From IMG/VR virus record IMGVR_UViG_3300045988_147415: a DNA stretch of 63,014 nt; one strand, written 5' to 3'. Positions 2,809 to 39,707 of this stretch are shown here, one piece after another; position 1 is the first letter of the stretch, and each line of letters opens with the position of its first letter. The stretch is from a virus. Taxonomy: Duplodnaviria > Heunggongvirae > Uroviricota > Caudoviricetes. The translations under genes and the position numbers were made by a program. A model generated the notes under the pieces. That model was not told the origin of the DNA and did not search any database. It saw nothing but the letters and a program-made list of their open reading frames with translations.

Positions 2809-2822
2809 AAGGGGTGCATTTT

Positions 2823-3476
2823 CTATCCTTTCTTGAAATCGAAGTTGCCAGCAGTGGCCTGAAAGGTTCCTCCTGCCTTGAAAGCTATGTCTCCGTTAGC
2901 GGTGACAGCAATATTTTCCCCTTTAACATTGATGTTGTTGGCTGATTTGACGTTAACACTCCCTCCTGCATTCACGATTACATCAGCCGGACCAATGATA
3001 TATATCTGCCCGGACTCATTCATGCCAATCCTTGAGCCTGCTGCCGTATTGGCAATTTCATAGCCGCCACCAGCAGTTCGTACTTCAAGAATATTGTTGC
3101 GGTGAATAACGAAGTCTTTCGTTGCTGAGATTTGGGGGCGGGGAGGTGCTCCATCTACTTCCGGCGGCGTCCAGCCGTTGCCTTTGCCAGATGCTTCTGG
3201 TGCAACGTTTGGAATTCCTCCCGGTGCATCCTGAGCGGCACCAACTATCATTGGGCGTCTGGTGTCTATTCGACCGTTAACATCTAAATAAGGAAACTCT
3301 ACCCAGACCAGGTCACCTTTGACTGTAGGTACAAAAGCGTTTCCGATGGGTAACAGGTATTCCGCCCAGGGTAGATCGTCATCAGGAACGCCATTCCAGT
3401 CAGGTAAAACACGGACTTGAGCACGCATAAGCCCTGCCGGGTGCACAGTTCCAACAATTTGCGCTCTACGCTTCAT
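2823..3476 (-). CDS. phage baseplate assembly protein V-like (spike/OB-fold)
   Basis: N-terminal G.V...G..RV.LP..WAEYLLP...GDLVWVEF pattern typical of gpV/Mu gp45-type baseplate spikes; Gly-rich C-terminal repeats. Confidence 0.65.
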   Translation of the reverse strand: MKRRAQIVGTVHPAGLMRAQVRVLPDWNGVPDDDLPWAEYLLPIGNAFVPTVKGDLVWVEFPYLDVNGRIDTRRPMIVGAAQDAPGGIPNVAPEASGKGNGWTPPEVDGAPPRPQISATKDFVIHRNNILEVRTAGGGYEIANTAAGSRIGMNESGQIYIIGPADVIVNAGGSVNVKSANNINVKGENIAVTANGDIAFKAGGTFQATAGNFDFKKG

Positions 3477-6024: not shown

Positions 6025-6102
6025 AGGTCGATCTGTCAGGTATCGAAAGGAAGATTTTCTGGAGATTGTGATTTTGGATGAAGGAGGGGGAATTCATAAA
6101 AT

Positions 6103-6129
6103 GCACTTGCGCACAGTGCAACGGTGCGC
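6103..6129. promoter_or_regulatory. overlapping palindromes GCACTTGCGCACAGTGC / GCGCAC-N9-GTGCGC in the higBA promoter region (candidate HigA operator)
   Basis: Dyad symmetry immediately upstream of a TATAGT -10-like hexamer and the higB RBS. Confidence 0.3.
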
Positions 6130-6174
6130 TATAGTTATGGCATTCGGTAATCATCACGGAGGATCAAATGACTA

Positions 6175-6477
6175 ATGACCAAAAAAATTAACATAAAGGA
6201 TTTCAGGGATGCGTGGCTTGATGATTTTTTTGAATTTTCAACACCACATAGAAAGATACCTCCTGATATTCATATGACATTGTCACGGAAGTTGGACATT
6301 ATCAATGCCGCAACTACCTGTAAGGATTTAAGATCACCACCAGGTAATCGGTATGAGGAACTGTCAGGGAAGCTAAATGGCTATTCATCAGTAAGGGTGA
6401 ATAAGCAATATAGGTTAATTTTTAAGTGGGTTAACGGAAAGGCCGAGGACTTGTATCTCGACCCTCACAAATACTAA
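6175..6477 (+). CDS. higB: HigB-family toxin (plasmid maintenance system killer, RelE/ParE superfamily)
   Basis: DLRSPPGNRYEELSGKLNGYSSVRVNKQYRLIFKWVNG matches the conserved HigB core; toxin-first order with adjacent HTH antitoxin. Confidence 0.8.
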   Translation: MTKKINIKDFRDAWLDDFFEFSTPHRKIPPDIHMTLSRKLDIINAATTCKDLRSPPGNRYEELSGKLNGYSSVRVNKQYRLIFKWVNGKAEDLYLDPHKY

Positions 6478-6547
6478 AACAGATACCCGGTTACGGACCG
6501 GGTTCTGACCAGAGTCCACTTAATACGCACGCTAGTAAGGGCAAAAA

Positions 6548-6886
6548 ATGAAACAGGCAACCAGAAAACCGACGACCGTAGGTGATATCCTGCTGTACGA
6601 ATACCTGGAGCCGTTAGAGCTGAAGATCAACGAGTTAGCAGAAATACTTCATGTTCATCGTAACACCGTAAGTGCTCTTGTTAATAATAATCGTAAGCTA
6701 ACGATGGATATGGCATATCGCCTGGCAAAAGCATTCGATACTTCTGTAGATTTTTGGATTAATCTTCAGACCGCAGTAGATCTGTGGGAAGTCGAAAATG
6801 ATATGCGCGTTCAGGAAGAGTTAAGTCGTATCAATACTGCTGAAAAATTTATTTCTCAGCGGAACCTGAATAAAAAAGCAGCCTGA
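6548..6886 (+). CDS. higA: HigA-family antitoxin (XRE-type HTH)
   Basis: GDILLYEYLEPLELKINELAEILHVHRNTVSALVNNNRKLTMDMAYRLAKAFDTSVDFWINLQ is a classic HigA HTH; directly downstream of higB. Confidence 0.8.
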   Translation: MKQATRKPTTVGDILLYEYLEPLELKINELAEILHVHRNTVSALVNNNRKLTMDMAYRLAKAFDTSVDFWINLQTAVDLWEVENDMRVQEELSRINTAEKFISQRNLNKKAA

Positions 6887-6906
6887 TATAGTAAAACACA
6901 TACAAA

Positions 6907-6935
6907 AAGCCCACTTAGCAAGTGGGCTTTCCTTT
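6907..6935 (+). terminator. Rho-independent terminator after higA
   Basis: Hairpin AAGCCCACT-TAGCA-AGTGGGCTT followed by a T-rich tract. Confidence 0.5.
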
Positions 6936-6942
6936 GTAATTA

Positions 6943-7143
6943 ATGAACATTAAACCTATCCGTACAGAACAAGATTATGAGGCCGCACTGCGTGCGGTCG
7001 AACCGATGTTCGATAACGAACCGGAAATGAATACTCCGGAAGGTGATTTCTTTGAGGTTATGAGTCTTCTCATTGAGGAGTACGAGAAGAAACATTACCC
7101 AATTCAGCCACCATCACCTGTTGAATCTTTTAACTATCCATAA
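6943..7143 (+). CDS. short ORF resembling only the N-terminal (non-HTH) domain of XRE/HigA-type antitoxins; possibly truncated
   Basis: MNIKPIRTEQDYEAALRAVEPMF...EEYEKKHYPI is the usual N-terminal segment of longer antitoxins but the ORF stops before any HTH. Confidence 0.4.
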   Translation: MNIKPIRTEQDYEAALRAVEPMFDNEPEMNTPEGDFFEVMSLLIEEYEKKHYPIQPPSPVESFNYP

Positions 7144-7164
7144 TAAAAGTAATCAGGATAAGCT

Positions 7165-7893
7165 ATGATGTCAGAAAAAGTTAAAGATAATTCGTCTATA
7201 AATGAAACAGAACTAAAATCATTTTCTGAAATAATAAAAGATAAAATATTTAACAAGGTTTTTGCATATGTTGTCATTTCTTTTCTAATCCTTAACTGGA
7301 AGGATATTTTAATTATATTAAAGTCAAAGGACGACATCCTATATACATTATCTATTGTTTTTGTTGGTGGTAATGTACCGTTCTTTGATAATTGGATTGT
7401 ACCCCCGTGGGTTTGTCACGTTGTAATCCCATTTATTTATGGAGTATTTGCATCTGTATTAGCTCCTATTCTCACACTGACGATATCTAAGCTAACAAGT
7501 AAATTATACACTGAAATAAGATATTTAGATGAAGTTGCTGATTATGATAAAAGAATAGAATTGCAAAGAAAGAAAACAAAGTTAAATCAAGCAACCAATG
7601 ACGCTAAATATTCAAAACAAATCTTAGATGAAAATGAAAATAAACTTAATGACTTGGTTACGAAACAGCGAGAAATTTGTGGCGCGATAAAACTATTGCA
7701 TACTGATGTTGGCAGTATTATTGAACTATATAAAAATAAGGGGGTTAGCATTGAATCTCCGCAAGATTTATGTGATTTTATAGTCGCTATAAAAAGCACA
7801 TCATTCTATAATGATGACAAGCATTTTAATAAATTGGTGTCTGATATTTCCAGTTTGTTTGATAATACTGGAATTGATCTTTCAAAAAAATGA
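7165..7893 (+). CDS. AT-rich cargo gene: membrane protein with cytoplasmic coiled-coil domain (candidate abortive-infection/defence protein)
   Basis: Strong drop in GC over the ORF; three hydrophobic helices then a Lys/Glu/Asn-rich coiled-coil region; own terminator. Confidence 0.55.
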   Translation: MMSEKVKDNSSINETELKSFSEIIKDKIFNKVFAYVVISFLILNWKDILIILKSKDDILYTLSIVFVGGNVPFFDNWIVPPWVCHVVIPFIYGVFASVLAPILTLTISKLTSKLYTEIRYLDEVADYDKRIELQRKKTKLNQATNDAKYSKQILDENENKLNDLVTKQREICGAIKLLHTDVGSIIELYKNKGVSIESPQDLCDFIVAIKSTSFYNDDKHFNKLVSDISSLFDNTGIDLSKK

Positions 7894-12470: not shown

Positions 12471-13412
12471 TTAACTAACAATCCAGTCCGTAGCAACAAC
12501 ATCCTCTGGAGCTAAATCAATCGCATGGATTTTCCCATCCCGGATGGTGCGCCAGTGCTTTCGTGATCCACCTTCGGGCCATACCCATACACCTTCAGGC
12601 CAGGATGCTCGACGGCATACGATTGCATACCCTGTTTTAATCCTCTCTCTCGCGGTATGCAACGACAGGTTTGCCTTTGGACTTTCAGGTACAGGATGGT
12701 GAATGGCCTGAAACAGCCCCATTTTGGGGTGATACCAGCGTTTATTACGTGGTTCTGCCTCCGACATCACCTGCTTAAAGGCTTTCCGGAAGGGGGCCAG
12801 GGCCACAATGGAGCGTCGCGCAAGCAAACCATCTGGAGTTAAAAACTCATGCGTATCGGTGGGAATCCGGAAAGCGTTGACCAGGTTGCGACATTTGGCT
12901 TCAGTCAGGCCACATTTCGCCGCCAGCTGGCGGTAGCCAATGTAGCCTTCCGGAATATTGCCTTTCTTGATTTGCTCGACGGTTTCAGCGACTTCGGACA
13001 CTTGTGCCGATACTTCGGCTACCTGGGCATTAACGGCGTTGATCCGGCGTTCATGCTCAAGATGCATTTGCGCCATTTCAGCCAGGATTTCGGCTTTTGA
13101 TTTTAACTGTACCCGGGCATTCTCCAGTTCGCGCCAGCGGTCCACCAGCCGGGCGGTAAATTCGGGAGAAAGCTGTGCGACGACAATGATACTGTCACGC
13201 TTGCCTTGTTCGCCTTCAAAGATGTAAGCCTTGGAAAATCGACGAGGGCCAACTGATTGTTTATTTTCAATTTCCTCAATTTGAGGAAATTGAATGACAC
13301 CACCTTTAGTTAATACTTCAATGGTACGCTTCACATTATCATGACGCTTACCTACCAGTTCCGCGATCTCAATACTGGTCATTGTCGCTTTTTGAGAGAT
13401 GGACAGATTCAT
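12471..13412 (-). CDS. ant: phage antirepressor (N-terminal Rha-type domain, C-terminal Ant domain), immI-like copy 1
   Basis: TSIEIAELVGKRHDNVKR Rha-type N-terminus; 313 aa; paralog of the 51842..52549 gene; preceded by an icd-like ORF as in P1 immI. Confidence 0.75.
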   Translation of the reverse strand: MNLSISQKATMTSIEIAELVGKRHDNVKRTIEVLTKGGVIQFPQIEEIENKQSVGPRRFSKAYIFEGEQGKRDSIIVVAQLSPEFTARLVDRWRELENARVQLKSKAEILAEMAQMHLEHERRINAVNAQVAEVSAQVSEVAETVEQIKKGNIPEGYIGYRQLAAKCGLTEAKCRNLVNAFRIPTDTHEFLTPDGLLARRSIVALAPFRKAFKQVMSEAEPRNKRWYHPKMGLFQAIHHPVPESPKANLSLHTARERIKTGYAIVCRRASWPEGVWVWPEGGSRKHWRTIRDGKIHAIDLAPEDVVATDWIVS

Positions 13413-17100: not shown

Positions 17101-17108
17101 GGCTCCGC

Positions 17109-20720: not shown

Positions 20721-21020
20721 ATGAGTCAAGGTAATGGTGACGGAGCTGCAAAGTGCAGAATCTCCACTTGTTTGATTAATGACAAAAAAATAGAACCGTG
20801 CGCGGCGTTGGCACAATCCCTGGAGCAGGATGCTGAATACACGACGCGGAAAGGTCTGCTGAAATACAAAATCTATAACCATGAATTAATTCATTCACAA
20901 GACCTGATCATGCTGCGGTCAGGCGAGCTTTCTAAATCGCCGATTCGAATTTCATTTTGCCCGTTCTGTGGTGAAAGTCTGAAAACGTGGGAAGCGGAGG
21001 CAACCAGTGATCAAAATTAA
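20721..21020 (+). CDS. hypothetical small protein (possible zinc ribbon)
   Basis: CRISTC ... CPFCG cysteine pairs. Confidence 0.4.
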   Translation: MSQGNGDGAAKCRISTCLINDKKIEPCAALAQSLEQDAEYTTRKGLLKYKIYNHELIHSQDLIMLRSGELSKSPIRISFCPFCGESLKTWEAEATSDQN

Positions 21021-21816
21021 CTATCAAGAACTGCGCGAGGCGGCGGAACAGGCAACGCAAGATGAATGGGTAGCATATATTTTGCCGGGTCATAACGGCA
21101 TTTATCCTGCGCGCACGTCTGAGGGTAGGCATTGCGGATACTTTATTGACTGGCCTGGCATTGATGGACAAAGGAATGCTGGTGCTAATGCCCGTTATAT
21201 CGCGTCTATCCCACCAAAAGTTGCGCTGGCACTCCTGGCCGAAATTAAGTGCCTGGAAGACACAAATATTGATGCCATGTGCCGAATTGCAGAACTGGAA
21301 AAACAATGCGCTGAATGGGAGCGAAAAGCATTAAGCAACTTTGAAGAGTGTGCTGCTATGGCTGAACGTATCGAAGAGTTGCAGACAAACTCTGCACCAG
21401 GTTCGTTTGGCATCATCGGTGAAAACATTCGAACACAGGATAATCGAATAACGTCAGACCCTATGTTTTGTGTGTATCAAAAGCGCGAAATCGTTGTTGA
21501 TGCTGATTATGACTATGACCGGATTGTCTGGGTTGATGAAGATGGCAATGAAGCCAATAAACGCCAAAGTCGTCGTCTCGAACTACTTCACGAAAACTTT
21601 CGAGAGCCACCAGAAAAATGGCGGCGCGTTGCTGTGAAAGATATTGATGAATTCGTGACCTGCTGTTTCACCGAGCAGGGTTGTAAAGACTACTTGGCAG
21701 CCAATGGTCACAATCTTCGCTTGCCTTTTATATATGTAAAAAGCGGTTTCAGGAACGCTGAATATATCGGCATAAGAAACTGGCTTGCTGGCATTCGCAT
21801 CAAAGGAGGTGAGTAA
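21007..21816 (+). CDS. ead/Ea22-like family protein
   Basis: N-terminal ELREAAEQATQDEW...ANARYIASIPPKVALALLAEI typical of Ea22-like prophage proteins. Confidence 0.55.
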   Translation: MIKINYQELREAAEQATQDEWVAYILPGHNGIYPARTSEGRHCGYFIDWPGIDGQRNAGANARYIASIPPKVALALLAEIKCLEDTNIDAMCRIAELEKQCAEWERKALSNFEECAAMAERIEELQTNSAPGSFGIIGENIRTQDNRITSDPMFCVYQKREIVVDADYDYDRIVWVDEDGNEANKRQSRRLELLHENFREPPEKWRRVAVKDIDEFVTCCFTEQGCKDYLAANGHNLRLPFIYVKSGFRNAEYIGIRNWLAGIRIKGGE

Positions 21817-22391: not shown

Positions 22392-22837
22392 CCACTATTA
22401 CCAAAGAACGTGCGGAGATTAAATCATTCATCACAGGCTTCCTGAGCGACCCAGCGCACGATAACCAATCTTCAGACAGCCTGCTTGCCAATGTGTTTCG
22501 TATCGCGCTGGCATCGCTGGAAGCAGAACCGATGGCATGGCGATATCGCTACGTGAAAAAAGGCATTACGGACTCACAGGGGGAGCCGTGGGTTGGTGAC
22601 TGGAAATATGTACCGACAAAAGAGGATTGCAACGACAGACCGAACTATGAAATTCAGGCGTTATTCACTGCCCCGCCTGTGCCACTGACACCAGAAGGAT
22701 TGATTAAAGCAGTGCGCTTCTATGAACAGGTTAAGCGTGAGAATCCGCCAGTCGAAACCGGAGCATGGAAAGACGCTGTTGACTGGGTGCTCAAAGAGGC
22801 TTGCCAGGCTGTAAACATTGGTACCAAAGGAGATTGA
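22388..22837 (+). CDS. hypothetical protein (paralogous N-terminal motif with the next gene)
   Basis: Shares ALASLEAEP and TAPP(V/A)P segments with 22839..23681. Confidence 0.45.
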   Translation: MTTITKERAEIKSFITGFLSDPAHDNQSSDSLLANVFRIALASLEAEPMAWRYRYVKKGITDSQGEPWVGDWKYVPTKEDCNDRPNYEIQALFTAPPVPLTPEGLIKAVRFYEQVKRENPPVETGAWKDAVDWVLKEACQAVNIGTKGD

Positions 22838-22838
22838 T

Positions 22839-23681
22839 ATGACCACTTTCACCGACAAAGAACTGATTAAAGAAATCAAAGAGCGCATAGGCAGCCTGGA
22901 CGTTCGAGACAATATTGAGCGCCGTGCTTATGAAATTGCACTGGCATCGCTGGAAGCAGAGCCTATTGGTGAAGTTTCAGAGAAGCGACACGGCCTTGTT
23001 ATGGATGGAACGGTAGACCTTGGCGGGAAATCAACTTATCGCATCATTAAGGGAGAAAAAGCGATGAAGTTGTTGCCGTTGGGGACGAAGTTTTATACCG
23101 CACCGCCAGCGCCGGTAATACAGGCTGATGTCGCGCAAGCAATTGAAAATCTCAAGCAGAAATTAGTGGAATGCAATCGCTATAACTACTGCGCAGATGC
23201 AGTTAAGGGCGTAGAGGATGCCTGCCACGCTGCCATGCTTCAGGGTATCCAACCTGTAAGCCAAACTTACAACTTGCCAGAATTAATCGAAGGGATGGAA
23301 GTTTCCATTGATGTAAGCACTTGTGATGCTGATTTAGGTAATCGCTATTTCGGCACCGTCACCGAGGCGTTAGAACTTGATACAGCCAAGAATGGTTACA
23401 TCCTCCTGGTTCAGGACGCAGAGCCAAACTTCGATGTAAATGGCAACTCTCCGGGAACTCCGGATAGTTGGATAAGCTGTAGTGATCGAATGCCTGAAAA
23501 GGGCCAGAACGTGCTTATTTCGGTGAATTTCGATAGCTCTCTGGTTGAACCGCTAATATGCTCCGCACGCTATACCGGAAGCACCTTTCGGCGCGGAGAT
23601 GCAACGATTAAGCCGGGTAATGGTATTGAGCAAGCAACTCACTGGATGCCGCTACCGGAACCGCCGCAGGAGGCGAAATGA
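22839..23681 (+). CDS. hypothetical protein with DUF551-like C-terminus
   Basis: C-terminal W(M)PLPEPP motif; AAAGGAG RBS at internal ATG. Confidence 0.5.
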   Translation: MTTFTDKELIKEIKERIGSLDVRDNIERRAYEIALASLEAEPIGEVSEKRHGLVMDGTVDLGGKSTYRIIKGEKAMKLLPLGTKFYTAPPAPVIQADVAQAIENLKQKLVECNRYNYCADAVKGVEDACHAAMLQGIQPVSQTYNLPELIEGMEVSIDVSTCDADLGNRYFGTVTEALELDTAKNGYILLVQDAEPNFDVNGNSPGTPDSWISCSDRMPEKGQNVLISVNFDSSLVEPLICSARYTGSTFRRGDATIKPGNGIEQATHWMPLPEPPQEAK

Positions 23682-24237: not shown

Positions 24238-24256
24238 TAATCATGGCGGAAGCCAG

Positions 24257-24517
24257 ATGATACTTACCGAATATACGTTCGACCACAAAACCAATAAATC
24301 ACGTTCAGTATATTTGCTTCGGCACAATAGCCGCGTAAGAAATACCGTGCTGGAGCAAAATCTGACTGTTGAAATGGATAATTTGGGAAACTTCAAGCCA
24401 ACAATATCGCTTGATGATTTTCCTCGTGGTTTAAGCGAAAGAGAAGCAATGCTGAAATTAGCAGAATGGTTACAAAGATTGAGCATTGCTATTGAGGATA
24501 ACTGGATTCAACCATAA
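24257..24517 (+). CDS. hypothetical small protein
   Basis: Start ambiguous (24224 or 24257). Confidence 0.35.
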   Translation: MILTEYTFDHKTNKSRSVYLLRHNSRVRNTVLEQNLTVEMDNLGNFKPTISLDDFPRGLSEREAMLKLAEWLQRLSIAIEDNWIQP

Positions 24518-24541
24518 TGAAAAACAGAAAGAAAGATTGCT

Positions 24542-24751
24542 ATGGCAACATTTAGTAAATTCGCAGTAATTATGATTTTATTAATCCCCCTCACTGTTAC
24601 AGCAGGGGAACAGCAACATTGCACAAAAGAGAATGAACACCCTTTCATCGTTATTCAATGTGATGACGGAACGGTGACAGTGGTTAATGTAAGAAATGAC
24701 CGTGTAGCTGTATGCCGTAAAGGCGAACCATGCAAGGAGATAAAGCTATGA
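24542..24751 (+). CDS. small secreted protein
   Basis: Signal-peptide-like N-terminus (FAVIMILLIPLTVTA) with several Cys. Confidence 0.4.
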   Translation: MATFSKFAVIMILLIPLTVTAGEQQHCTKENEHPFIVIQCDDGTVTVVNVRNDRVAVCRKGEPCKEIKL

Positions 24752-26566: not shown

Positions 26567-26946
26567 TGAGGCATATATCACCGGAAGAACTTATTGCGCT
26601 TCATGATGCGAATATAAGCCGCTACGGCGGCCTGCCGGGAATGTCAGATCCGGGTAGGGCAGAGGCCATTATCGGGAGAGTTCAGGCCAGAGTTGCCTAC
26701 GAAGAGATCACCGACCTTTTCGAAGTCTCCGCCACCTACCTGGTGGCTACGGCGAGAGGGCATATATTCAATGATGCCAATAAGCGTACCGCGCTAAACA
26801 GTGCGCTGCTATTTCTACGCCGTAACGGTATACAGGTATATGATTCTCCCGTGCTGGTGGAGCTTACAGTGGGGGCTGCAACTGGTGAAATCCCCGTATC
26901 TTCAGTAGCGAAAAAACTACGTGAACTATATGGTTCCAATATTTGA
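26566..26946 (+). CDS. doc: Doc toxin (death-on-curing, Fic fold)
   Basis: [25 protein letters not shown]...[12 protein letters not shown] matches P1 Doc; TAATG overlap with phd. Confidence 0.9.
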
Positions 26947-26950
26947 AAAG

Positions 26951-26974
26951 AAGCCCGCTCAACCAGGCGGGCTT
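26951..26974. terminator. hairpin shared by convergent doc and terminase-paralog genes
   Basis: AAGCCCGC-TCAACCAG-GCGGGCTT; on the minus strand it is followed by a U-rich tract. Confidence 0.4.
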
Positions 26975-26981
26975 CCTACTA

Positions 26982-28088
26982 TCACTCAATGATTTTTTCT
27001 GCTGTCAGCCAGCTAATTTCTTGCCTGTCTTTCGGCGGTTTTAGCATGTGGGCGTATTCAGCGACATTCTCCCACGGAATTGTTTTTGCCCACTCAACGA
27101 TAGCATTGTGATCTGCAGTGAAGAGTGGAATGGTGTGCGATTTCAACCACTCTAATGTTGTAACGCCATGTTTTTTTGCGTGGTGCTGTGCATGATGCCG
27201 GGCTATCACTTGTAATGGCATTGTCCATTCACTACCATCAGGCATCGAAAAGCGCATTGTTTTCGGCATATCTGATTCAAGAACAGCCTCCCGAATACCC
27301 GGGAACTCACCAAGAACCATGCGACGGTAATCATCGCCGATTTTACCACCATACATTTCTGCAATCCCATCAAGATAATCTTGAGTAAGCAGAGGTGATT
27401 CTTCTGCGTTCAGCTTGATGGCTGTATAAATACCACATGGATTTTCTTCAGTTTTTGCACGACCATGATGGGAATCGTAAAAGTGTCCATGTTCCTCCTC
27501 TGGAGGAGCAGACATTAAAAGTATACGTGAATCGTCACTCACTAAAGATGCTCTTAACATCCCGAATAGCCGATAGCTTACAAGAGCCGCGTCCATAACA
27601 ATGATCAAAAGATGTTCAGCATAATATCCGGCTACATCTTCCTCATAATTTAGGCGATATGGTTTAATTTCGCAGCCCCAAGATTTTTGGTAACGATGAT
27701 TGAGGCCATTTTGGTCGATTTGAAAATACTCTCCCAGTAATGGCGCTTTTGTTTTAGCTTTCTCCCAATACATATTCATGAGTGAGAGAGTTACCATTCC
27801 ATTACGCTCAAAGTCTGGAGCGACCATGACCGTTTTAGACTCAGGCATCAGGATCGTATAAAGGATACAAATGATAGCCAGAGCAGACTTATGCCCTATC
27901 CCAGTCGGTGTGGTAACGCTGACTGCTGAACCTTTTTGTTGAATCGCCTCAACAATTAATTTTTGCTGGTGGGTTAACTTAACCCCCATCAACTCTTCTG
28001 CTGCTAATGCCCAGTCATGGCTATATTTGCTTACCAGCTCTATCCACTCTGGTAATTCGGTGATGTTTTTAGGCGTCAGCATCAGCAT
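26982..28088 (-). CDS. terminase large-subunit ATPase-domain paralog with degenerate catalytic motifs
   Basis: Aligns with the pacB-like protein over about 250 aa (THQQKLIVEAIQ, HFYDSHHGRAKTEENP) but Walker A is GIGHKS rather than GTGKS and Walker B is VMDAAL rather than ILDEAS. Confidence 0.55.
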   Translation of the reverse strand: MLMLTPKNITELPEWIELVSKYSHDWALAAEELMGVKLTHQQKLIVEAIQQKGSAVSVTTPTGIGHKSALAIICILYTILMPESKTVMVAPDFERNGMVTLSLMNMYWEKAKTKAPLLGEYFQIDQNGLNHRYQKSWGCEIKPYRLNYEEDVAGYYAEHLLIIVMDAALVSYRLFGMLRASLVSDDSRILLMSAPPEEEHGHFYDSHHGRAKTEENPCGIYTAIKLNAEESPLLTQDYLDGIAEMYGGKIGDDYRRMVLGEFPGIREAVLESDMPKTMRFSMPDGSEWTMPLQVIARHHAQHHAKKHGVTTLEWLKSHTIPLFTADHNAIVEWAKTIPWENVAEYAHMLKPPKDRQEISWLTAEKIIE

Positions 28089-28875
28089 CCTCCGCTACCT
28101 CTGCTTCCACATCAGCCACGGCTTCATCGGACGGTTCTTCTTTGGCCTGCTCTGCAATCGCCGCACGGCATTTCGCCCTGGCTGTAGCGATTGCTTCAGC
28201 TCGCACATCATCAGGAATCGTTGACGTGATATACATATCCAGTTCTTCGGCGCGGAACACTGTTTGGTCCAGATATTCGCGTAGCATCCAGGTAAATTCG
28301 AAATCACACGCGATAATTTCTGCGCTACCTTCTGCACCATTTGGGAAATGAATAAATGCCTGTTTAGCCAAACCGATAACACGACATGCGGTTGCCAAAA
28401 CAGCGACAACCAGGTTTACATTTTCACACGCTACGGGCTGATTAACGCCGGAGATTACTCCATTTAACTGTCGGTTATATGGAAGGTAGTTTGAGATGCG
28501 TTCTACGCGCCATGTGCCAGTCAGGCTGCCATTTTTAAAGATAATTGGTGTAACGGATAGCCCAAGCTCGCGTATAAGTCGTTGCGCTATAGCAGGATCA
28601 TTAAACAGGTCTAATGCTACACATTCGAAAGACTGCGCAAGGGCAAACAGTTCTTCCAGCGAGTAGTCTTTGCCCCTGGCGGTGATGTAACGACGAACGC
28701 CGCTGTCCGCATCACTCCATATAGCTACGCCATGCTCTTCATTCAGTTCTTCATTAAAGCCGAGATACGTCATGATAGTGCGTTCAATCGTGTCAAACGG
28801 CAGTGACATGTCGGCGTTAACAGCCACCAGCAGGCCATTACGCAAGCGGTATTGAATTGCTTTAGTATTTTCCAC
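28069..28875 (-). CDS. hypothetical protein with acidic C-terminal tail
   Basis: 268 aa; C-terminus EAVADVEAEVAEDADADA. Confidence 0.45.
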   Translation of the reverse strand: MENTKAIQYRLRNGLLVAVNADMSLPFDTIERTIMTYLGFNEELNEEHGVAIWSDADSGVRRYITARGKDYSLEELFALAQSFECVALDLFNDPAIAQRLIRELGLSVTPIIFKNGSLTGTWRVERISNYLPYNRQLNGVISGVNQPVACENVNLVVAVLATACRVIGLAKQAFIHFPNGAEGSAEIIACDFEFTWMLREYLDQTVFRAEELDMYITSTIPDDVRAEAIATARAKCRAAIAEQAKEEPSDEAVADVEAEVAEDADADA

Positions 28876-28881
28876 GTTAAA

Positions 28882-29544
28882 TCACTCCACTACAAACCAG
28901 TCACATGCCAGTAAGTCGCCTACAGAAGGAACCCACGGAACAACTACACCTTGTGCATTTTTTAAGGCGAAATAAGCACCATACGGAACGAGGTCGCCGG
29001 GGAAATATCCCTTAATGGCTTCCATTCGTGCCGGGTACTGTCCTTCAGGAACCAGCCAGCAGAATTGGTTTTCGCCGTTCCACCCGCGTCGGGCAACTTT
29101 CTTGCCATCCTTCAGCCACATCAGCGCGTCAGAAAAGTCGGCTGCTTCAAGGTCGATTTCTTCTTGTAGAGTAGCGATACCGCCAGCAGAAATAGTTACG
29201 TCCCTGGCTGTAATGAATGTCACCCCATTGTGACCTTCAATGCTGAGCGATACCCCATTTTCGGAGGCGTCGTTAACCCGGCTATAGCATTTTTCAAATG
29301 CTTTCTCTGGCACATAGACCAGATAGCCATTTTCAGCAGTGACGAGATATCCTCCTATTTGCGGTCGGAATTTTTCCAAGAACACACCATCAACACGAAG
29401 CGTCATTCCTTTTGGCTCAACGACTTCGATACTGCCAAAAATGGGCGCATAAGCTTCGCCGACAATAACAATATCTTTGATTTTCGATGCCCGAATGACG
29501 CTGTGGCTTTTGTATTTGGGGAACACCTGAAAAGTGCTGGCCAT
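28882..29544 (-). CDS. hypothetical protein with DUF2829-like C-terminal motif
   Basis: ALMWLKDGKKVARRGWNG motif, repeated in 37191..37766. Confidence 0.45.
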   Translation of the reverse strand: MASTFQVFPKYKSHSVIRASKIKDIVIVGEAYAPIFGSIEVVEPKGMTLRVDGVFLEKFRPQIGGYLVTAENGYLVYVPEKAFEKCYSRVNDASENGVSLSIEGHNGVTFITARDVTISAGGIATLQEEIDLEAADFSDALMWLKDGKKVARRGWNGENQFCWLVPEGQYPARMEAIKGYFPGDLVPYGAYFALKNAQGVVVPWVPSVGDLLACDWFVVE

Positions 29545-30526: not shown

Positions 30527-30867
30527 CGACGCCCCCTTGCAGGATATCGACCTGCATCAGTATCCGGTGCGATAAAGCCGGTAGTGGGGCGAGTGAAAGC
30601 GAGATTAATCTTCTCGACCATAGTGCGATAATTTTCCTGATAGTGGGCCAGGAGTTTTTCGGCGGCAATGATGGTTACTTTCCGGACGTAGCTTTCTGCT
30701 TCCTCCAGATTTCGCCAGTTTTTTTCGAGGGTAAACACAGGGACGGCCTCAAGCCCGGTCATGATGCCGAACACAACGACAGCATGACTGTTCTTAACAC
30801 CAGCGGCGAAGGTTACGGTGTAACCATCCACCTTGAAGCGTCTTGATTCCGTGATTTGACTCTGCAA
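30523..30867 (-). CDS. hypothetical protein downstream of cre
   Basis: 114-aa ORF; operator motif in its promoter. Confidence 0.4.
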   Translation of the reverse strand: MQSQITESRRFKVDGYTVTFAAGVKNSHAVVVFGIMTGLEAVPVFTLEKNWRNLEEAESYVRKVTIIAAEKLLAHYQENYRTMVEKINLAFTRPTTGFIAPDTDAGRYPARGRR

Positions 30868-30924
30868 AGCACCCTCCTAAATAGGCGAGGGTACTTTACA
30901 GCAAAGGCGTTAATCTAAAAAGAT

Positions 30925-30946
30925 GTGTTAGAAATTTAATTTACGA
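30925..30946 (-). promoter_or_regulatory. operator-like motif (CGTAAATTAAATTTCTAACACA on minus strand)
   Basis: Recurrent motif at the cre 3' end, upstream of 30523..30867. Confidence 0.4.
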
Positions 30947-31969
30947 ATCCATAAGGCGGCTATTAGCCCCCACAGACACGCCGCCACGGCGAAGATACCG
31001 CATAAGTGTTTCCGGTTTCTTCCAGGTTCCTTCCTGCATGATCTCCACCATAGACACCTGCTTTTCAGCCATATCAATAGCGGCCCCGACGCGTGCACTA
31101 TGCCCGGTCCACGTCCGGTATCTTCCTTTGTTTGGCGTAGCATCTCTTTTATTCAGCAACACCCAGGCGTCGCTGAATATTTTCTCCATTGCAGGTGCAG
31201 TAAGGGGCGTTGTCGTGATCCTGGCCTTATTGCTACGGTGTATCGGCGGGAACAGCACTGCGTCAGGATGTTCGCGAAGCCCGGAAACATCCAGCCAGTC
31301 ATTCAGCACAGCGGTAGTGCGACGGGAAAGCACCTTATCAAGCCCGGCGGCGGTCGTTATTGTCTTCGTGTGTGAAATATGTAGCGTGACAGTGTCACCT
31401 GTTTGGTCCAGATCTCCTACACGAATACGCGAGATTTCCGACATACGCATCAGCGTATTGTATGCAACAAAGAGAAAAGCCCGGTTGCGCAGGTCCACCA
31501 GCCGTTCTGACCTGGACAACAGGACGTCGAGCAGTTTCAGATCGTCCCACCGCAGCGGTATAGCCTGGCCTGTTCGTTCGCCTTTTTCAGTTGCCGCTTC
31601 GCGCCGGATGCGCCGCATAGCCAGAGAAACACTTTTATCATCCGAAAGTGGCGCAAGGCCACAATGCGAAAGCAGCATGTTCAGCATGGCGTAGTGCTTA
31701 TCAATGGTGGTCGAAGCCAGATCGGCATCATGCAGCTGAAGAAAATACTCGCGGGCCATTTCTGGTGAGATCGGAAACCAGGCAAGCTGGCGAGCGTGAC
31801 ACCAGCGCGCCCAGGAATGAAACACCAACCGGAGGTCGCGCAGAGTATTCGGCGCATAAGCCCCCTGGTCATTCATGAACCGCATAAAGTTTTCTGCGGC
31901 TTCCTGGTACTCTTTGCCAATGTTGCGCAGAAAACCACCGGAACTGCCAGAGATAATTAATTCACTCAT
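30941..31969 (-). CDS. cre: Cre-like tyrosine recombinase
   Basis: Colinear similarity to P1 Cre (SWARWC, VSLAMRRIRRE, RNRAFLFVAYNTLMRMSEISRIRVGD, HTKT, SGHSARVGAAIDMA, EIMQEGTW); roughly 40 percent identity by eye. Confidence 0.85.
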   Translation of the reverse strand: MSELIISGSSGGFLRNIGKEYQEAAENFMRFMNDQGAYAPNTLRDLRLVFHSWARWCHARQLAWFPISPEMAREYFLQLHDADLASTTIDKHYAMLNMLLSHCGLAPLSDDKSVSLAMRRIRREAATEKGERTGQAIPLRWDDLKLLDVLLSRSERLVDLRNRAFLFVAYNTLMRMSEISRIRVGDLDQTGDTVTLHISHTKTITTAAGLDKVLSRRTTAVLNDWLDVSGLREHPDAVLFPPIHRSNKARITTTPLTAPAMEKIFSDAWVLLNKRDATPNKGRYRTWTGHSARVGAAIDMAEKQVSMVEIMQEGTWKKPETLMRYLRRGGVSVGANSRLMDS

Positions 31970-32120
31970 GAAACTATTTGACCTCTATATACAGATGACG
32001 CTACGCGAAAAATATAAAAATGACAGGGTAGCTATAAGTTAATTTTCAAAATACAAGCCTTTGATTCGAGGCACGTATTTTCAGTGATGTCAACACTGTT
32101 CATCTACACATGATTATAGC

Positions 32121-32154
32121 CTAACTTTAAATAATGCCAATTATTTAAAGTTAT
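32121..32154. other. lox-like recombination site CTAACTTTAAATA-ATGCCAAT-TATTTAAAGTTAT
   Basis: 13-bp inverted arms around an 8-bp asymmetric spacer; arms resemble loxP arms (ATAACTTCGTATA); about 150 bp upstream of the cre-like start. Confidence 0.65.
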
Positions 32155-32334
32155 AAAATGCCGATTTTTTTTAATCCATCATAGATTGATGATGACCAGT
32201 AACACGTTGCCTTCATGGTCTTTAATTTGCGAAGTGTGGTTTCTACGGTTGGTTTTCTAAAATTGATGACAAAAAATCACAGTTCGATCCTTTACTCACT
32301 CTGTTATTCGACATAAATTTGTCATAGTAATTTT

Positions 32335-32355
32335 ATGTTAGAAAACTAAATCGAG
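32335..32355 (-). promoter_or_regulatory. operator-like motif (CTCGATTTAGTTTTCTAACAT on minus strand) just upstream of the candidate repressor gene
   Basis: Recurrent motif 10-30 bp before the 32364 start; weaker variants at about 32251-32270 and 32036-32056. Confidence 0.4.
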
Positions 32356-32363
32356 TAGGAATA

Positions 32364-33401
32364 ATGAGTAAGAAGTCGATCGAGAAAGAGTACAAACGGT
32401 TCCTGCAAACCGCTGAACGGTGGAAAGAGCTGGTGGTCGCAAACTCTGTTTTCCATGATACCAGTTATGCTGGCGAGGAATTCCGCCATGTTGCATTAAC
32501 GCATGACCAAAACATATTAGAAGAAGCTGAAAAATGTCTTGCTGAATGGAAAGCCTTCGTTGACATGTGCCGCGATGCCGACGGCAAAGCGTCGAACATT
32601 GTTGAGTCTGTATATTCTCCGATCCCATTCATCATTGAGGACACCAATCAAAGCACGCATGTCGTTGTGCAAAGCGCTACAACAACACGTACATTTACAC
32701 GTGAACAATTGCTAAAAAAATACGACAAAATCATAAAGAAAAGCCTGAAAAACAGGGTTTTTTCTCAAATTGTAGGTGCTCTTGAAGAAGAACAGCGCTT
32801 CTTTGAAGCTGAGCCTGAAGGCGAGATCTACCGGGCGCGTAAAGAGGCATATACAGATGTTGTGCTGACAACAAACATCGAAGGCAGCAATGCCCTTTCT
32901 CGCTTTAGAGTTGGCGCACATGGCGCATTGGTTTTCGCAAGACTACCGAAGACAACGATCCCCGTTGTCAATAATGTTGGTGAACGCCGGAGCATTACAA
33001 TTTATTCTGGCGTCGAATCGGTACCTTGCAGCCTTCTCGGCGATTTTAACTTATATCGTGTTCGTGACCTGGAAAAACACCAGCCAAGCTACGTTGCGAA
33101 GTCGTACATCTTAAGGAACATCGATATTCGCAATGAAAGCCTTAAGCAGAAATCCGCTAAGATGCTGGAGGATGCCGATCCGGCTATTCGCCATATCATT
33201 GAGCGTAAGATACGTACATCACGTGAAGCAATGGCAAGGCTGGATAAAATGGATCTGGAATTGTTAGACGTAATGATGGCCTCTGGAGACGACCTGACCG
33301 GCATTAAACTGAATGAAGCTCGTAAAAAATACGGCAAAGCAATCGAAGAACGTTACGGATACACATTCCCCCAAACGCAGTACGCCGCGAAGCTCTGGTA
33401 A
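32364..33401 (+). CDS. hypothetical protein; candidate C1-type master repressor by position
   Basis: 345-aa ORF divergent from cre across the lox site and convergent with pacB, the topology of c1 in P1; no sequence-level confirmation. Confidence 0.35.
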   Translation: MSKKSIEKEYKRFLQTAERWKELVVANSVFHDTSYAGEEFRHVALTHDQNILEEAEKCLAEWKAFVDMCRDADGKASNIVESVYSPIPFIIEDTNQSTHVVVQSATTTRTFTREQLLKKYDKIIKKSLKNRVFSQIVGALEEEQRFFEAEPEGEIYRARKEAYTDVVLTTNIEGSNALSRFRVGAHGALVFARLPKTTIPVVNNVGERRSITIYSGVESVPCSLLGDFNLYRVRDLEKHQPSYVAKSYILRNIDIRNESLKQKSAKMLEDADPAIRHIIERKIRTSREAMARLDKMDLELLDVMMASGDDLTGIKLNEARKKYGKAIEERYGYTFPQTQYAAKLW

Positions 33402-33428: not shown

Positions 33429-34937
33429 TTATATATCCAGATCTGGCATTTCGATATCCGCCAGAACCTGATCTCGGAAAGTTGCCATTTCGGCACCAAT
33501 ATCTTCATTAGCAGGCACATAGTCCACCAGCATAGTGAAGCAGTAGGTATCCCATCGGTCAGGCGATTTGATGTTTAGCTTTTGCCGCATGTGCTCTTTG
33601 CGCATCATCGCCATTTTCCCTTCCTCATTCAGTAAAAAGGGGATTTTTGACGCTTGCTCTGCCGTTTTAGGGTCACTGTCTATCCGCATACGCCCTGACT
33701 TTATGGCATCACGCGCCATAATATTTGCGTAGGCACGCTGATTAACAAATCGCTCCCTGTCTTTGTTCGCAAACATGGGTTTTCCCCACCGAATACGTAC
33801 CGGGTTCGCACCACGACGCACCAACTGCGCACACGTATCAGAACCAAAACCATCGGCATCAACCGCGATTGTTATATTCGGGTATTTTTCCGGCGTACAT
33901 TCGTTATATATGAAGTCAGCAAAGGCCAATGGGTCCATAGTGCCAGGCATCTCCATTACCTTAAAGTTAACAACGCGCCGCTTATCCCTGTGACCAGATA
34001 CCTTGCAGATGTTGAGGACCGACTTATCTCGCCCATTACCAACGTCAGCCGTTGCCACCCATCCCCAGTTTTTCTCCAACAACACCTTGCGGCGAGCAGC
34101 GCGATCGCATTCATCACGACCAAGCAAATAGCCGTTAATTTCTCGTGGGAACTGACCAAGCACCTTGACCATGTACTCAATAGAATCGCGCCCGCCATAT
34201 TCCAGAAGCTTCTGCTTGATGAATTGTGGTGTGACGAACGGTGATTCTTCCGAGTTAAGAACAATTGCTGTCCAGATCCCTTTCGGGTTGTCTGGGGTTT
34301 TTGCTTGAGAATGGTGCGAATCGTAGAAATAACCACTTGGCCTTGTTGGCTGGGATAGCATCAACATCCGGTTATCTTCTTCAGTAAGAGCACCGGTCAT
34401 TACGCCGATCGCCTTATCAGATATACCAGATGCTTCATCCAGAATTAGAAGCAAATGTGCCGCGTGTTCACCCGCCAGCGCTTCTTCGTTGCCGAGTCGA
34501 TAACCTTTGCAGAGAACTTCCCAAATCCCCTTACGGGAGCGCTCATAAAACATGGTGTCAGAGAGGACAAAATAGGTCTGCAACCACCCATGACGCTTAA
34601 CTGCATTCGCCCAATACTGTTTAACGTATTTGAATACGCCTGTTTTTACCTGGCCTATCTTGTTAGCAACAATGATGACACGGGCATCGGGGAACAGGAT
34701 CATGAAAATCAACAGCAACATCGCGGTAAGGGACGACTTCCCCGTTCCGTGTCCGGACGTGACGGTCGTCCTACTCCCCGTTTCCTGCACGGACTGAATG
34801 ATCTGCTGCTGCTGGTGGGAGGGGAACATCCCAAAAATATCGACAACAGCCTGGGTAAAGTTGTAGCGGTATTTGATTACCATATCGCGCCAGCGTGGAT
34901 CGCTGGTGACGCATTTAATCTTGCGCCCTCCAGCCAT
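33429..34937 (-). CDS. pacB: terminase large subunit (PacB-like)
   Basis: Walker A SGHGTGKSS and Walker B LLLILDEASG; 502 aa; directly downstream of the small-subunit gene. Confidence 0.8.
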   Translation of the reverse strand: MAGGRKIKCVTSDPRWRDMVIKYRYNFTQAVVDIFGMFPSHQQQQIIQSVQETGSRTTVTSGHGTGKSSLTAMLLLIFMILFPDARVIIVANKIGQVKTGVFKYVKQYWANAVKRHGWLQTYFVLSDTMFYERSRKGIWEVLCKGYRLGNEEALAGEHAAHLLLILDEASGISDKAIGVMTGALTEEDNRMLMLSQPTRPSGYFYDSHHSQAKTPDNPKGIWTAIVLNSEESPFVTPQFIKQKLLEYGGRDSIEYMVKVLGQFPREINGYLLGRDECDRAARRKVLLEKNWGWVATADVGNGRDKSVLNICKVSGHRDKRRVVNFKVMEMPGTMDPLAFADFIYNECTPEKYPNITIAVDADGFGSDTCAQLVRRGANPVRIRWGKPMFANKDRERFVNQRAYANIMARDAIKSGRMRIDSDPKTAEQASKIPFLLNEEGKMAMMRKEHMRQKLNIKSPDRWDTYCFTMLVDYVPANEDIGAEMATFRDQVLADIEMPDLDI

Positions 34938-36301
34938 TAATCATCCTCCGGCGGTTCTATCGCGATATCATCATCTCCGGCGTCATACCCTGCATCAGAT
35001 GCATCATAATCACCGTAAATTTCAGCCGTTGCCGAAGGGTCAATATCCAGCTCTTCGTCGTTGGCCTCGAATTCTCCAGCTTTACGCTCGCCATTGCGGT
35101 CGTAATCTCCGCACCCCAATTCTTCAACAATGGTTGCCACATCCGCCCGGCGCTCTGCCAGCCATTGCGGATGGTTAGCCTGAAGCGTTGCAAACTCCCT
35201 TGCCTCTTTGTCCAGCTGTTCATCATCAACATCATTGACGTCAGAAACAGGTGGTTCGAGAAGAGTGATAGCTTTCGCCGCGCGCGCCGCGAGGATAGCC
35301 GGGACGCTGACCCCCTGGCGCTCGATGTATTCAGCAACACCGATATCATCCAGTTCCTCGCGCTCACGCATACGTATAGCGGCGGCGATAACTCTGGCTG
35401 CGCGTGCGTCAGCGCCAATGCGATATTCAATCTCTTTGCCACGCTGTTCGGCCTGTAGGCGTGCTAATTCGAGTTTTTCTCTGGCCTCAGCCTCTTTGAA
35501 TGCTTGCTGGCGAGCGCTCTGACGAAGCTTTTCATCCCCCTGTCGCAGCTTTTGTTCGGACTGATATATAGCTGCCAACCTACTGATAAAATCATTCATG
35601 TAGTAGGCCGCGTCACTGATTAGACCGAGAAGGCGCTGCCCAGGGTGCATTCCTTCTGGCTCTTTATCGCCCAAGGCGTCTATTTCCGCCTGTAGACGTT
35701 CGGCCTCCTGATCAACAATGCTTTGATACTGAAGTGCGCGCTCTTGCGCCATTTGAATTGCTAACCGCAGGTGTTCTTCTGCGCCGTTCTTCATCATATC
35801 GCGAGCCACATTCGTAGTGGGCAATGTGGCACGCTGCACAGCACCGCCAGGGATCATTGCTGAAGATCCCTCAATTTTTGGGGCGCTTTTATCTTCTTCG
35901 GGGATCATTTTCGCCATTTTTTCGCGCAATGATCTCCTGACAGATTCTTTTATCTCATTGTTATTATTGGTATTACTTTCATGATCCGAAGTTTTCTTTC
36001 TTGGCATACTTCGGAAAGAACCTGCACCCTGCGAATTGTCAATTTCTGTAAATTTTGTTTTTTCTGCACCCTCTTCCAGCTTTTTTGTTGCTCTTCCCGC
36101 CCGTTTTTTTTCAGGTGATTTGGTGCTTTTTTTTGTTGTCTTTACCTGCGACCGCACCTCATTTTTTTTCATATTGAGATGCTTTCTGGCTGTATTGAAG
36201 CTAAGGCCATGCTCCTCACAGTATTCCTTTACAGTGATCCCTTTTTCTTCACGCAACGCTATAAAGCGGGCGCGGTGCTCCTCCCAATTAACCAGACTCA
36301 T
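34937..36301 (-). CDS. pacA: terminase small subunit (PacA-like) with N-terminal HTH
   Basis: N-terminal HTH (ITVKEYCEEHGLSFNTARKHL); overlaps the pacB start; contains an internal GATC-hexamer cluster. Confidence 0.6.
   Translation of the reverse strand: MSLVNWEEHRARFIALREEKGITVKEYCEEHGLSFNTARKHLNMKKNEVRSQVKTTKKSTKSPEKKRAGRATKKLEEGAEKTKFTEIDNSQGAGSFRSMPRKKTSDHESNTNNNNEIKESVRRSLREKMAKMIPEEDKSAPKIEGSSAMIPGGAVQRATLPTTNVARDMMKNGAEEHLRLAIQMAQERALQYQSIVDQEAERLQAEIDALGDKEPEGMHPGQRLLGLISDAAYYMNDFISRLAAIYQSEQKLRQGDEKLRQSARQQAFKEAEAREKLELARLQAEQRGKEIEYRIGADARAARVIAAAIRMREREELDDIGVAEYIERQGVSVPAILAARAAKAITLLEPPVSDVNDVDDEQLDKEAREFATLQANHPQWLAERRADVATIVEELGCGDYDRNGERKAGEFEANDEELDIDPSATAEIYGDYDASDAGYDAGDDDIAIEPPEDD
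35850..35990. other. candidate pac packaging site: cluster of GATC hexamers inside pacA
   Basis: Five GATC sites within about 135 bp (near 35852, 35865, 35903, 35931, 35983) plus TGATCA near 35710, against about 0.5 expected by chance. Confidence 0.45.
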
Positions 36302-38220: not shown

Positions 38221-38296
38221 TGGTGGCCCCTACCGGATTTGAACCGGTGACCGTGCGATTATGAGTCGCCAGCTCTAACCACTGAGCTAAAGGGCC
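38221..38296 (-). tRNA. tRNA-Ile (anticodon CAU, ileX-like; Met cannot be excluded)
   Basis: 76-nt cloverleaf GGCCCTTTAGCTCAGTGGTTAGAGC...GGCGACTCATAATCGC...GGTTCAAATCC...GGGGCCACCA, closely resembling E. coli ileX. Confidence 0.8.
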
Positions 38297-38433
38297 AGAT
38301 TACTGTTAATTCCGCTTACGCTTTTTGCCAGAACCGCGTAAGGCTTTTGCCGCTTGCTCGGCCCCATATGCAACCACCAGCAAAAATAAAAATGTCCAAC
38401 CAGGGTTCTTATCGGCAAACGCCCAAAAATTCA

Positions 38434-38667
38434 TCACTTACAGCCACCTTGCATTTCCTTGGATAATTCATTGATTTTAGTGCTCAATAAGTAATCAAAG
38501 TAAAGATAAAACACAAAAGTAACGATAGTGCTTAAAGTGTCTGAAATTGCGTATTTCAGCTCAGGAAGCATGACAAAGCAGACAAATAGCGGAAGAAATA
38601 ACTGCACTATGCACAGGCTCTTCTTCCACAACCATCTATATCTGAAGTCTGACAACAAAAACTCCAT
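38434..38667 (-). CDS. possible small membrane protein inside the tRNA cluster
   Basis: AT-rich ORF with two hydrophobic helices; start ambiguous and RBS weak. Confidence 0.3.
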   Translation of the reverse strand: MEFLLSDFRYRWLWKKSLCIVQLFLPLFVCFVMLPELKYAISDTLSTIVTFVFYLYFDYLLSTKINELSKEMQGGCK

Positions 38668-38799
38668 TGCTTGAAACTTTATTAGGTTGCGGTGCCTGGT
38701 GCCTCCAGGTGACGTTAACCAGTTAACAATTAACGCCGGGATGTTTGACTTAACCACTAAGGAGGATTGTTTTAACTGTTCCGCGTGCGCTTAGCCGCA

Positions 38800-38920
38800 T
38801 TCACCGCAATGGTAAGAGCACTTGGCTGGCTGGGCGGCGATGACGCCTGTACGCATTTGGTGATCCGGTTCTGCTTCCGGCATTCGCTTAATTAGCCAAA
38901 TACTCTTAACGTTGCACTGG
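38800..38920. repeat. hairpin trailer element, copy 1 (immediately 3' of tRNA-Ser)
   Basis: Conserved TCACCGCAATGGTAAGAGCACTTGG paired with CCAAATACTCTTAACGTTGCACTGG about 70 nt away. Confidence 0.4.
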
Positions 38921-39004
38921 CGGAGAGTAATGGAATCGAACCATCATCGCTTGCGCAATGGGACGGTTTTCAAGACCGCTTGAGCACCATGCTCCCTACT
39001 CTCC
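38918..39004 (-). tRNA. tRNA-Ser (anticodon UGA), long variable arm
   Basis: 87 nt; acceptor GGAGAGT/ACTCTCC, anticodon loop CTTGAAA, T-loop TTCGATT, CCA encoded. Confidence 0.75.
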
Positions 39005-39129
39005 AGTGATTGTGGCGACCGGTGCTGATCTCCGGCTTGCGGTTATTTCAGACTCTCACGGGCGTTTAATTGCCCCGCCGAACAGCTCTTTTCCGCAATA
39101 GCTGCAATGTCTTTCGCGCATCAGCCTGC

Positions 39130-39240
39130 GCATTCACCACAATGTTGAGAACACTGGTTGTCACGCTGCAACGCAACATTTATTCGTAGATTGGGATATG
39201 ACCCCGTTACGCCGGTGTTCTCAACGTTGTAGTGCCGGTT
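39130..39240. repeat. hairpin trailer element, copy 2, with a duplicated fragment of the tRNA-Thr 3' end
   Basis: CACAATGTTGAGAACAC ... GTGTTCTCAACGTTGTAG 17-bp inverted repeat followed by GTGCCGGTTACGG. Confidence 0.4.
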
Positions 39241-39366
39241 ACGGTTCCGGCCAGGCCTCTTCCTCAACGGGGTGTTCTCCATACGGACTACCGTTTATTG
39301 GTCGTTCCTGCGGTTTATGTTGTGAAGCCAGATGCTTATCTTCTGGTTGCTTCTAGGAGCTGCACT

Positions 39367-39452
39367 TCATCACAACGGTAAGAGCATTTATGGCTCGCAT
39401 CGCGGGAAAAAGCCCACGGTAGAGAGTCGAACTCTACAAATGCTCTTACCTG
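39367..39452. repeat. hairpin trailer element, copy 3 (immediately 3' of tRNA-Thr)
   Basis: GGTAAGAGCATTT ... AAATGCTCTTACC 13-bp inverted repeat enclosing two internal hairpins; no valid cloverleaf on either strand. Confidence 0.4.
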
Positions 39453-39458
39453 TTGTGT

Positions 39459-39534
39459 TGGTGCCGGTTAACGGGATCGAACCGCTGACCATTCGCTTAC
39501 AAAGCGACTGCTCTACCAACTGAGCTAAACCGGC
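39459..39534 (-). tRNA. tRNA-Thr (anticodon UGU)
   Basis: 76 nt; acceptor GCCGGTT/AACCGGC, D-arm GCTCAGTTGGTAGAGC, anticodon loop TTTGTAA, T-loop TTCGATC, CCA encoded. Confidence 0.8.
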
Positions 39535-39538
39535 AATT

Positions 39539-39625
39539 TGGTGGGGAGTGATGGAGTCGAACCACCCGAGTCGCAATGACAGTAGATTTACAGTCTACCC
39601 CGCTACCCCTACGGACTAACTCCCC
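39539..39625 (-). tRNA. tRNA-Tyr (anticodon GUA), long variable arm
   Basis: 87 nt; anticodon stem-loop GTAGACTGTAAATCTAC as in E. coli tRNA-Tyr; acceptor GGGGAGT/ACTCCCC; CCA encoded. Confidence 0.7.
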
Positions 39626-39630
39626 TAAAT

Positions 39631-39707
39631 TGGCGATGGTGGGTGGATTCGAACCACCGACCGACAGCTTAGAAGGCTGCTGCTCTATCCTACTGAGCTA
39701 CACCATC
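39631..39707 (-). tRNA. tRNA-Arg (anticodon UCU, reads rare AGA)
   Basis: 77 nt; acceptor GATGGTG/CACCATC, anticodon loop CTTCTAA, T-loop TTCGAAT, CCA encoded. Confidence 0.8.

Follow-up and report, generated by a model that had tools for sequence, protein, structure and literature searches.

The recombinase gene and the 32-bp site beside it in the 63,014-nucleotide stretch of DNA analyzed here (the window) are, with a probability of roughly 97% by our estimate, the Dre/rox system by which phage D6 carries out site-specific recombination, present here on a D6-like phage-plasmid of Enterobacteriaceae. This pair is already known and is a standard genetic tool, routinely paired with Cre/loxP in mouse, zebrafish, cell-line and bacterial genetics; the Dre/rox of phage D6 was reportedly described by Sauer and McDermott in 2004. 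In a megablast search of positions 30800-32400 against phage records, only three matches were found, all of them Escherichia phage D6 with 97.2-97.6% identity. The matched record AY753669 ("Enterobacteria phage D6 immC region", 97.6% DNA identity) annotates dre, rox, c1, pacB and pacA, and labels the first two as [quoted passage not shown] and "region of crossover (rox) site for Dre recombinase"; Dre and rox are also annotated in the D6 record MF356679. The gene order dre-rox-c1-pacB-pacA in the window (Table 1) is that of the D6 annotation in both records, and the intergenic region between dre and c1 is 99% identical to that of D6, with rox and its immediate flanks unchanged. Moreover, a BLAST comparison of the whole window with the 91,159-bp D6 genome shows that the two are colinear, from D6 position 61340 to 91159 and on from 1 to 32223, and that most blocks are 92-98% identical, with several segments lacking any D6 counterpart, as in a mosaic. 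The colinearity with D6 together with the identity of Dre and rox indicates that the window is most probably a D6-like phage-plasmid and that the locus is Dre/rox; there is nothing in the evidence that contradicts this identification. The protein, the 32-bp site, the gene order and the phage-plasmid backbone are thus all common to D6 and the window, and the differences consist of one amino acid change (P106A), the 97.6% identity of the surrounding DNA and several mosaic replacements in the backbone.

Table 1. Positions of the recombinase gene, its site and neighboring features in the window
Feature	Position	Strand	Description
dre	30941..31969	-	Dre tyrosine recombinase, 342 aa, allele P106A; ATG-to-stop ORF
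Candidate dre promoter	32113..32140	-	-35 TTGGCA at 32140..32135, 16-nt spacer, -10 TATAAT at 32118..32113; 11/12 of the sigma-70 consensus
rox	32122..32153	+	32-bp Dre target; left arm 32122-32135, spacer GCCA 32136-32139, right arm 32140-32153
34-bp 13-8-13 parse of rox	32121..32154	+	CTAACTTTAAATAATGCCAATTATTTAAAGTTAT, read directly
c1-like prophage repressor	32364..33401	+	Divergent from dre; c1 of AY753669, D6_1 of MF356679; phrog_1678, E 3e-170
pacB, terminase large subunit	33429..34937	-	D6 annotation; weak Terminase_6N match
pacA, terminase small subunit	34937..36301	-	D6 annotation; contains the candidate pac site
Candidate pac site	~35791..36050		Within pacA; nowhere else in the window are there 5 or more GATC per 200 bp

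An earlier reading made from the sequence only had described a 342-aa protein colinear with P1 Cre but diverged from it, and this description is borne out. PDB Cre chains align with residues 22-341 of the window protein (E 7e-68), and a global alignment with P1 Cre, taken from the P1 record, gives 136 identical residues out of 338 (40%) over the full length, in agreement with the 37-40% identity reported between Dre and Cre (PMC3553980, PMC4777119). The PDB search returned Cre and Tre chains only and no Dre structure. The protein matches Pfam Phage_integrase (PF00589) above the cut-off (E 5e-17), scores 21.7 bits for the N-terminal SAM-like domain (PF02899), just below the 22.3-bit cut-off, and falls into the PHROG "integrase" family phrog_1. 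It has the full-length two-domain Cre architecture and the complete R-K-H-R-W-Y catalytic set, in which R175, K202, H290, R293, W316 and Y325 are aligned with R173, K201, H289, R292, W315 and Y324 of Cre. Judged by its sequence, the window protein belongs to the Cre family of tyrosine recombinases and has a lox-like site of its own directly upstream. The earlier reading had named Dre as a comparator only, and here it went astray, for the protein is Dre itself: 341 of its 342 amino acids (99.7%) are identical with D6 Dre (AAV84949.1) in an alignment free of gaps, and P106A is the sole change.

The window Dre has Ala at position 106, where D6 Dre, five other Dre-like proteins and P1 Cre (P105) all have Pro. 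Among plasmid records, the exact A106 protein is found only in NZ_CP115379.1, a single copy at 100% compared with about 90 at 99% identity or more. The fact that Cre and all six of the other Dre-like proteins have Pro at this position, and the rarity of the exact protein, could mean that the A106 allele is impaired or altered in activity, so that the locus would be Dre/rox by descent but unlike laboratory Dre in its behavior. However, the reading frame is intact and of full length, the catalytic residues are all present, rox is intact, and the substitution, a mild one, falls outside the catalytic domain. Furthermore, NZ_CP115379.1, an independent complete plasmid (E. coli CUVET20-PYO4, from a dog), is 100% identical with the window at the DNA level over 30941-32160. 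We therefore regard impairment of this allele as very improbable, and there seems to be no reason to expect that the A106 change entails a loss of function.

The site TAACTTTAAATAATGCCAATTATTTAAAGTTA is identical at 32 of 32 positions with the published wild-type roxP, 5'-TAACTTTAAATAATGCCAATTATTTAAAGTTA-3' (PMC4777119). It lies on the upstream side of dre, 152 nt from the ATG, which agrees with the claim of a 34-bp site (CTAACTTTAAATAATGCCAATTATTTAAAGTTAT) about 150 bp upstream of the recombinase. A repeat finder returned rox as a perfect inverted repeat with a 14-4-14 organization; the base composition predicts about 0.0026 repeats of this kind (perfect 14-nt arms, spacer of 0-10 nt) per 63 kb, and two were observed in the window. 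The rox 32-mer is present as a single copy in the window even when 3 mismatches are allowed (0 in 100 shuffles), and no second or degenerate rox was found in the window at up to 3 mismatches or up to 8 substitutions. The claim that the site has the exact 13-8-13 architecture of lox holds only in part. The outer pair of the 34-mer (C 32121 and T 32154) is not complementary, leaving the arms matched at 12 of 13 positions, and the asymmetry of its 8-bp "spacer" is confined to the central 4 bp; in the literature, too, rox is described as 14-bp inverted repeats with a 4-bp spacer (PMC4777119, PMC12331466). A lox-style alignment has nevertheless been used, in which ATGCCAAT is numbered as spacer positions 1-8 when rox is aligned with loxP, and rox mutations at positions 2 and 7 abolish the compatibility with wild-type rox (PMC4777119). 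[quoted passage not shown] The 13-8-13 parse is thus a defensible functional alignment in the lox style, as in the literature, and is not the symmetry of the sequence, which is 14-4-14. The claims that the arms share the TAACTT...ATA skeleton with loxP and that the spacer is different were confirmed, the 34-mer being identical with loxP at 22 of 34 positions (9/13 in the left arm, 3/8 in the spacer and 10/13 in the right arm).

We also considered whether a direct repeat overlapping rox (32122-32145 and 32146-32169, 75% identical) is a part of the site, and rejected it because the second copy is not conserved in the divergent loci. The other perfect 14-nt inverted repeat of the window, TTCAATTTCCTCAA-T-TTGAGGAAATTGAA, is located at 13266..13294 and overlaps a GAGGA ribosome-binding site and an ATG in a region matching the anti-repressor and icd genes of D6; it may control translation or act as an operator.

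That the recombinase and its site form a naturally divergent Cre/lox pair that is orthogonal to Cre/loxP was correct insofar as this is a Cre-family pair showing no cross-reaction with Cre/loxP (PMC12331466, PMC3553980); the implied novelty has to be given up. The 40% identity to Cre, the distinct site and the orthogonality reported in the literature might point to an undescribed pair that could serve as a new recombination tool, but with a protein 99.7% identical to Dre, a site identical to laboratory rox, and both parts annotated in AY753669 and MF356679, this is next to impossible. The locus is no new discovery, and the correct recognition of a functional recombinase-site pair from raw sequence makes it a useful positive control.

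The site was expected to be present at homologous loci, its absence having been set as a refutation. Among six homologous loci compared, namely D6 and five divergent loci, rox is present in all six, exactly in five and as a variant with four changes in one. In four of the five divergent loci, the Dre-like proteins share 306-320 of 342 residues with Dre (90-94%) and rox is unchanged at 32 of 32 positions. The DNA directly flanking rox differs substantially on both sides in three of these four. The invariance of rox while its flanks diverge is the signature of a constrained site. The fifth divergent locus, on the S. dysenteriae plasmid NZ_CP026818, encodes a Dre with 305 of 342 identical residues (89%) adjoining the variant site TAGCTTTAAATAATACTAATTATCTAAAGTTA (locus 2822..2853), in which each arm has a single change and the spacer has two (GCCA to ACTA). 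This recombinase and its site are a candidate for a heterospecific natural pair. The natural Dre variants (89-94% identity, mostly with unchanged rox) and the variant site offer modest material for the study of recombinase specificity.

To see how the locus is distributed, we looked at complete genomes and plasmids. It occurs in 124 of 5426 complete E. coli genomes, nearly always on plasmids of about 90 kb: 123 of the 126 places are on plasmids and three on chromosomes. Among PLSDB plasmids, 144 carry the locus (Escherichia 118, Salmonella 16, Shigella 9, Enterobacter 1). A scan of species-representative genomes with Dre as a query revealed no D6-type copy; the 74 relatives returned, in Pantoea, Mixta, Rahnella and Erwinia, show only 41-47% identity and are Panto-like. 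Dre-like genes (90% amino acid identity) accompanied by an exact rox are also found outside D6-type backbones. On the E. coli IncY plasmid NZ_CP058720 such a gene lies between copies of IS26 and adjoins mphA, and in Enterobacter hormaechei it is carried by NZ_CP049291, a 182-kb multi-replicon IncC/IncFIB plasmid. Going by these sequences, the dre/rox module has found its way into resistance plasmids.

D6 Dre, which has Pro at position 106, recombines rox with rox by excision and by co-integration (PMC3553980). By homology with Cre, both arms of rox would be occupied by one Dre monomer each, and a tetramer would pair two such sites. Tyr325 would cleave through a 3'-phosphotyrosyl intermediate, the exchange of the first pair of strands would give rise to a Holliday junction, and the exchange of the second pair would complete a conservative, cofactor-independent recombination, with the asymmetric core of rox setting the direction of the site. 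We infer this chemistry for the window Dre because it is a Cre-family protein that retains the catalytic residues. In P1, Cre/lox circularizes the terminally redundant injected DNA and resolves plasmid dimers, and the P1 pac site is Dam-regulated and rich in GATC. By analogy, we infer roles in cyclization and dimer resolution for Dre/rox. Headful packaging from the nearby pac site would make the injected linear DNA terminally redundant, and Dre would recombine the copies of rox in the redundant ends and thereby circularize the injected DNA; it would also resolve dimers of the plasmid prophage into monomers for faithful segregation. The arrangement of c1, site and recombinase adjoining pacAB is P1-like. 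This order fits such roles, and so does the GATC-dense stretch in pacA, a candidate for a Dam-regulated pac site that lies about 3.7 kb from rox, a placing comparable to that in P1. The residence on plasmids, with 123 of 126 places in E. coli, fits plasmid maintenance as well as cyclization. In D6-like Salmonella plasmids, the recombinase and its site have been listed as a multimer-resolution function (PMC6799933). A demonstration of cyclization or dimer resolution for D6 itself was not found in the accessible literature, Sauer and McDermott (2004) and Gilcrease and Casjens (2018) lying outside its scope. That the gene and site are instead a phage integrase and its attP for chromosomal integration could be argued from the Phage_integrase family, the "integrase" label of phrog_1 and the three chromosomal places among 126, but is scarcely credible given that the site is a simple 32-bp symmetric core, that the window has no second rox-like site, that the protein is colinear with Cre over its full length, and that 123 places are on plasmids of about 90 kb, D6 being a circular plasmid prophage.

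The Dre/rox locus may also hold its own switch. When the intergenic region was scanned for promoters, a single sigma-70-like site came up, pointing at dre, and this candidate is the only match of at least 11/12 on both strands of the 63-kb window. Its -35 hexamer is inside the rox core, its spacer covers the dre-proximal arm, and its -10 hexamer sits 4 nt beyond that arm. Among seven loci compared, a -10 hexamer of at least 5/6 is found at the same 16-nt spacing in all seven despite divergent neighboring bases, and the -35 hexamer is weakened, to 3/6, in the S. dysenteriae variant alone. Since the candidate promoter overlaps rox, Dre bound to rox may occlude its own promoter. The footprint of RNA polymerase would then overlap the dre-proximal arm, and rox-bound Dre would shut off its own transcription. 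From consensus matching and the seven loci, a dre promoter built into rox, with Dre repressing itself in a self-limiting circuit, is a tentative proposal that we consider possible and rather doubtful. In our literature search, which did not cover the original 2004 paper, no statement for or against a promoter in rox or autoregulation was found. P1 differs in this respect, its record annotating cra and three cre promoters downstream of lox, whereas the best promoter match in the window overlaps rox. If real, the overlapping promoter would bear on how a phage-plasmid limits the level of its recombinase.

Compared with Cre/loxP of P1, the system in the window has a homologous recombinase of full length (40% identity) with identical catalytic residues, a site likewise placed between the recombinase gene and c1 near pacAB, and a common arm skeleton in that site. 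It is nevertheless not the Cre/loxP of P1, as the protein (40%), the site (22/34), the core and the symmetry (14-4-14 rather than 13-8-13) are all different, and no cross-recombination of Dre and Cre on rox and loxP has been observed (PMC12331466). Similarly, Vika/vox and VCre/VloxP, like Cre/loxP, do not cross-react with Dre/rox (PMC3553980, PMC12331466); Vika is 23% identical to Dre, Dre is inactive on vox and Vika is inactive on rox (PMC3553980). Vika/vox, VCre/VloxP, SCre/SloxP and Nigri/nox resemble Dre/rox in being Cre-like tyrosine recombinases with short inverted-repeat sites adjoining the gene, and differ in their distant proteins, their unrelated site sequences and the lack of cross-reaction with rox. 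The sole reported cross-reacting relative is Panto/pox of Pantoea sp. aB, a Cre/Dre-like system in which pox is rox with one arm position changed and in which Panto and Dre cross-recombine; it differs from Dre/rox in its protein (about 50% identity), its other hosts and its relaxed specificity (PMC4957104).

Several further features of the window were noted. The mosaic segments absent from D6 lie at 16463-18133, 21039-21959, 22392-22837, 23230-25378 and 26937-28123, and their genes include those for an Ead/Ea22-like protein (21007..21816) and a DUF551 protein (22818..23681). Five tRNA genes are present at 38221..39707 (Met, Ser-tga, Thr, Tyr and Arg-tct), all on the minus strand. In D6, ARAGORN finds Met, Ser, Thr and Asn at 6084..7850, also all on the minus strand, whereas MF356679 annotates only three tRNAs and places them on the plus strand; the strand given in that record looks wrong. 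The tRNA gene comparison thus shows that the set in the window differs from that of D6, with Tyr and Arg instead of Asn. A 368-aa reading frame at 26982..28088 (minus strand; phrog_5902, unknown function) is absent from D6 and lies roughly at the position of D6 pdcA. Its product is a paralogue of the terminase ATPase domain of PacB (35% identity over 258 aa, E 8e-51), with both Walker motifs degenerate (TGIGHKS versus GHGTGKS and IVMDAA versus ILDEAS). The similarity stops near residue 264 of the 502 in PacB, the remainder of which has no counterpart, and some P1-like phages bear copies 48% identical to this reading frame beside a true pacB. The product could be a packaging decoy or an interference protein. 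Two genes from dut, a 220-aa protein encoded at 28882..29544 (minus strand) has a C-terminal Tad2-like domain (Thoeris anti-defence 2, PF11195, E 1.6e-22), and is likely the product of a counter-defence gene of the phage-plasmid.
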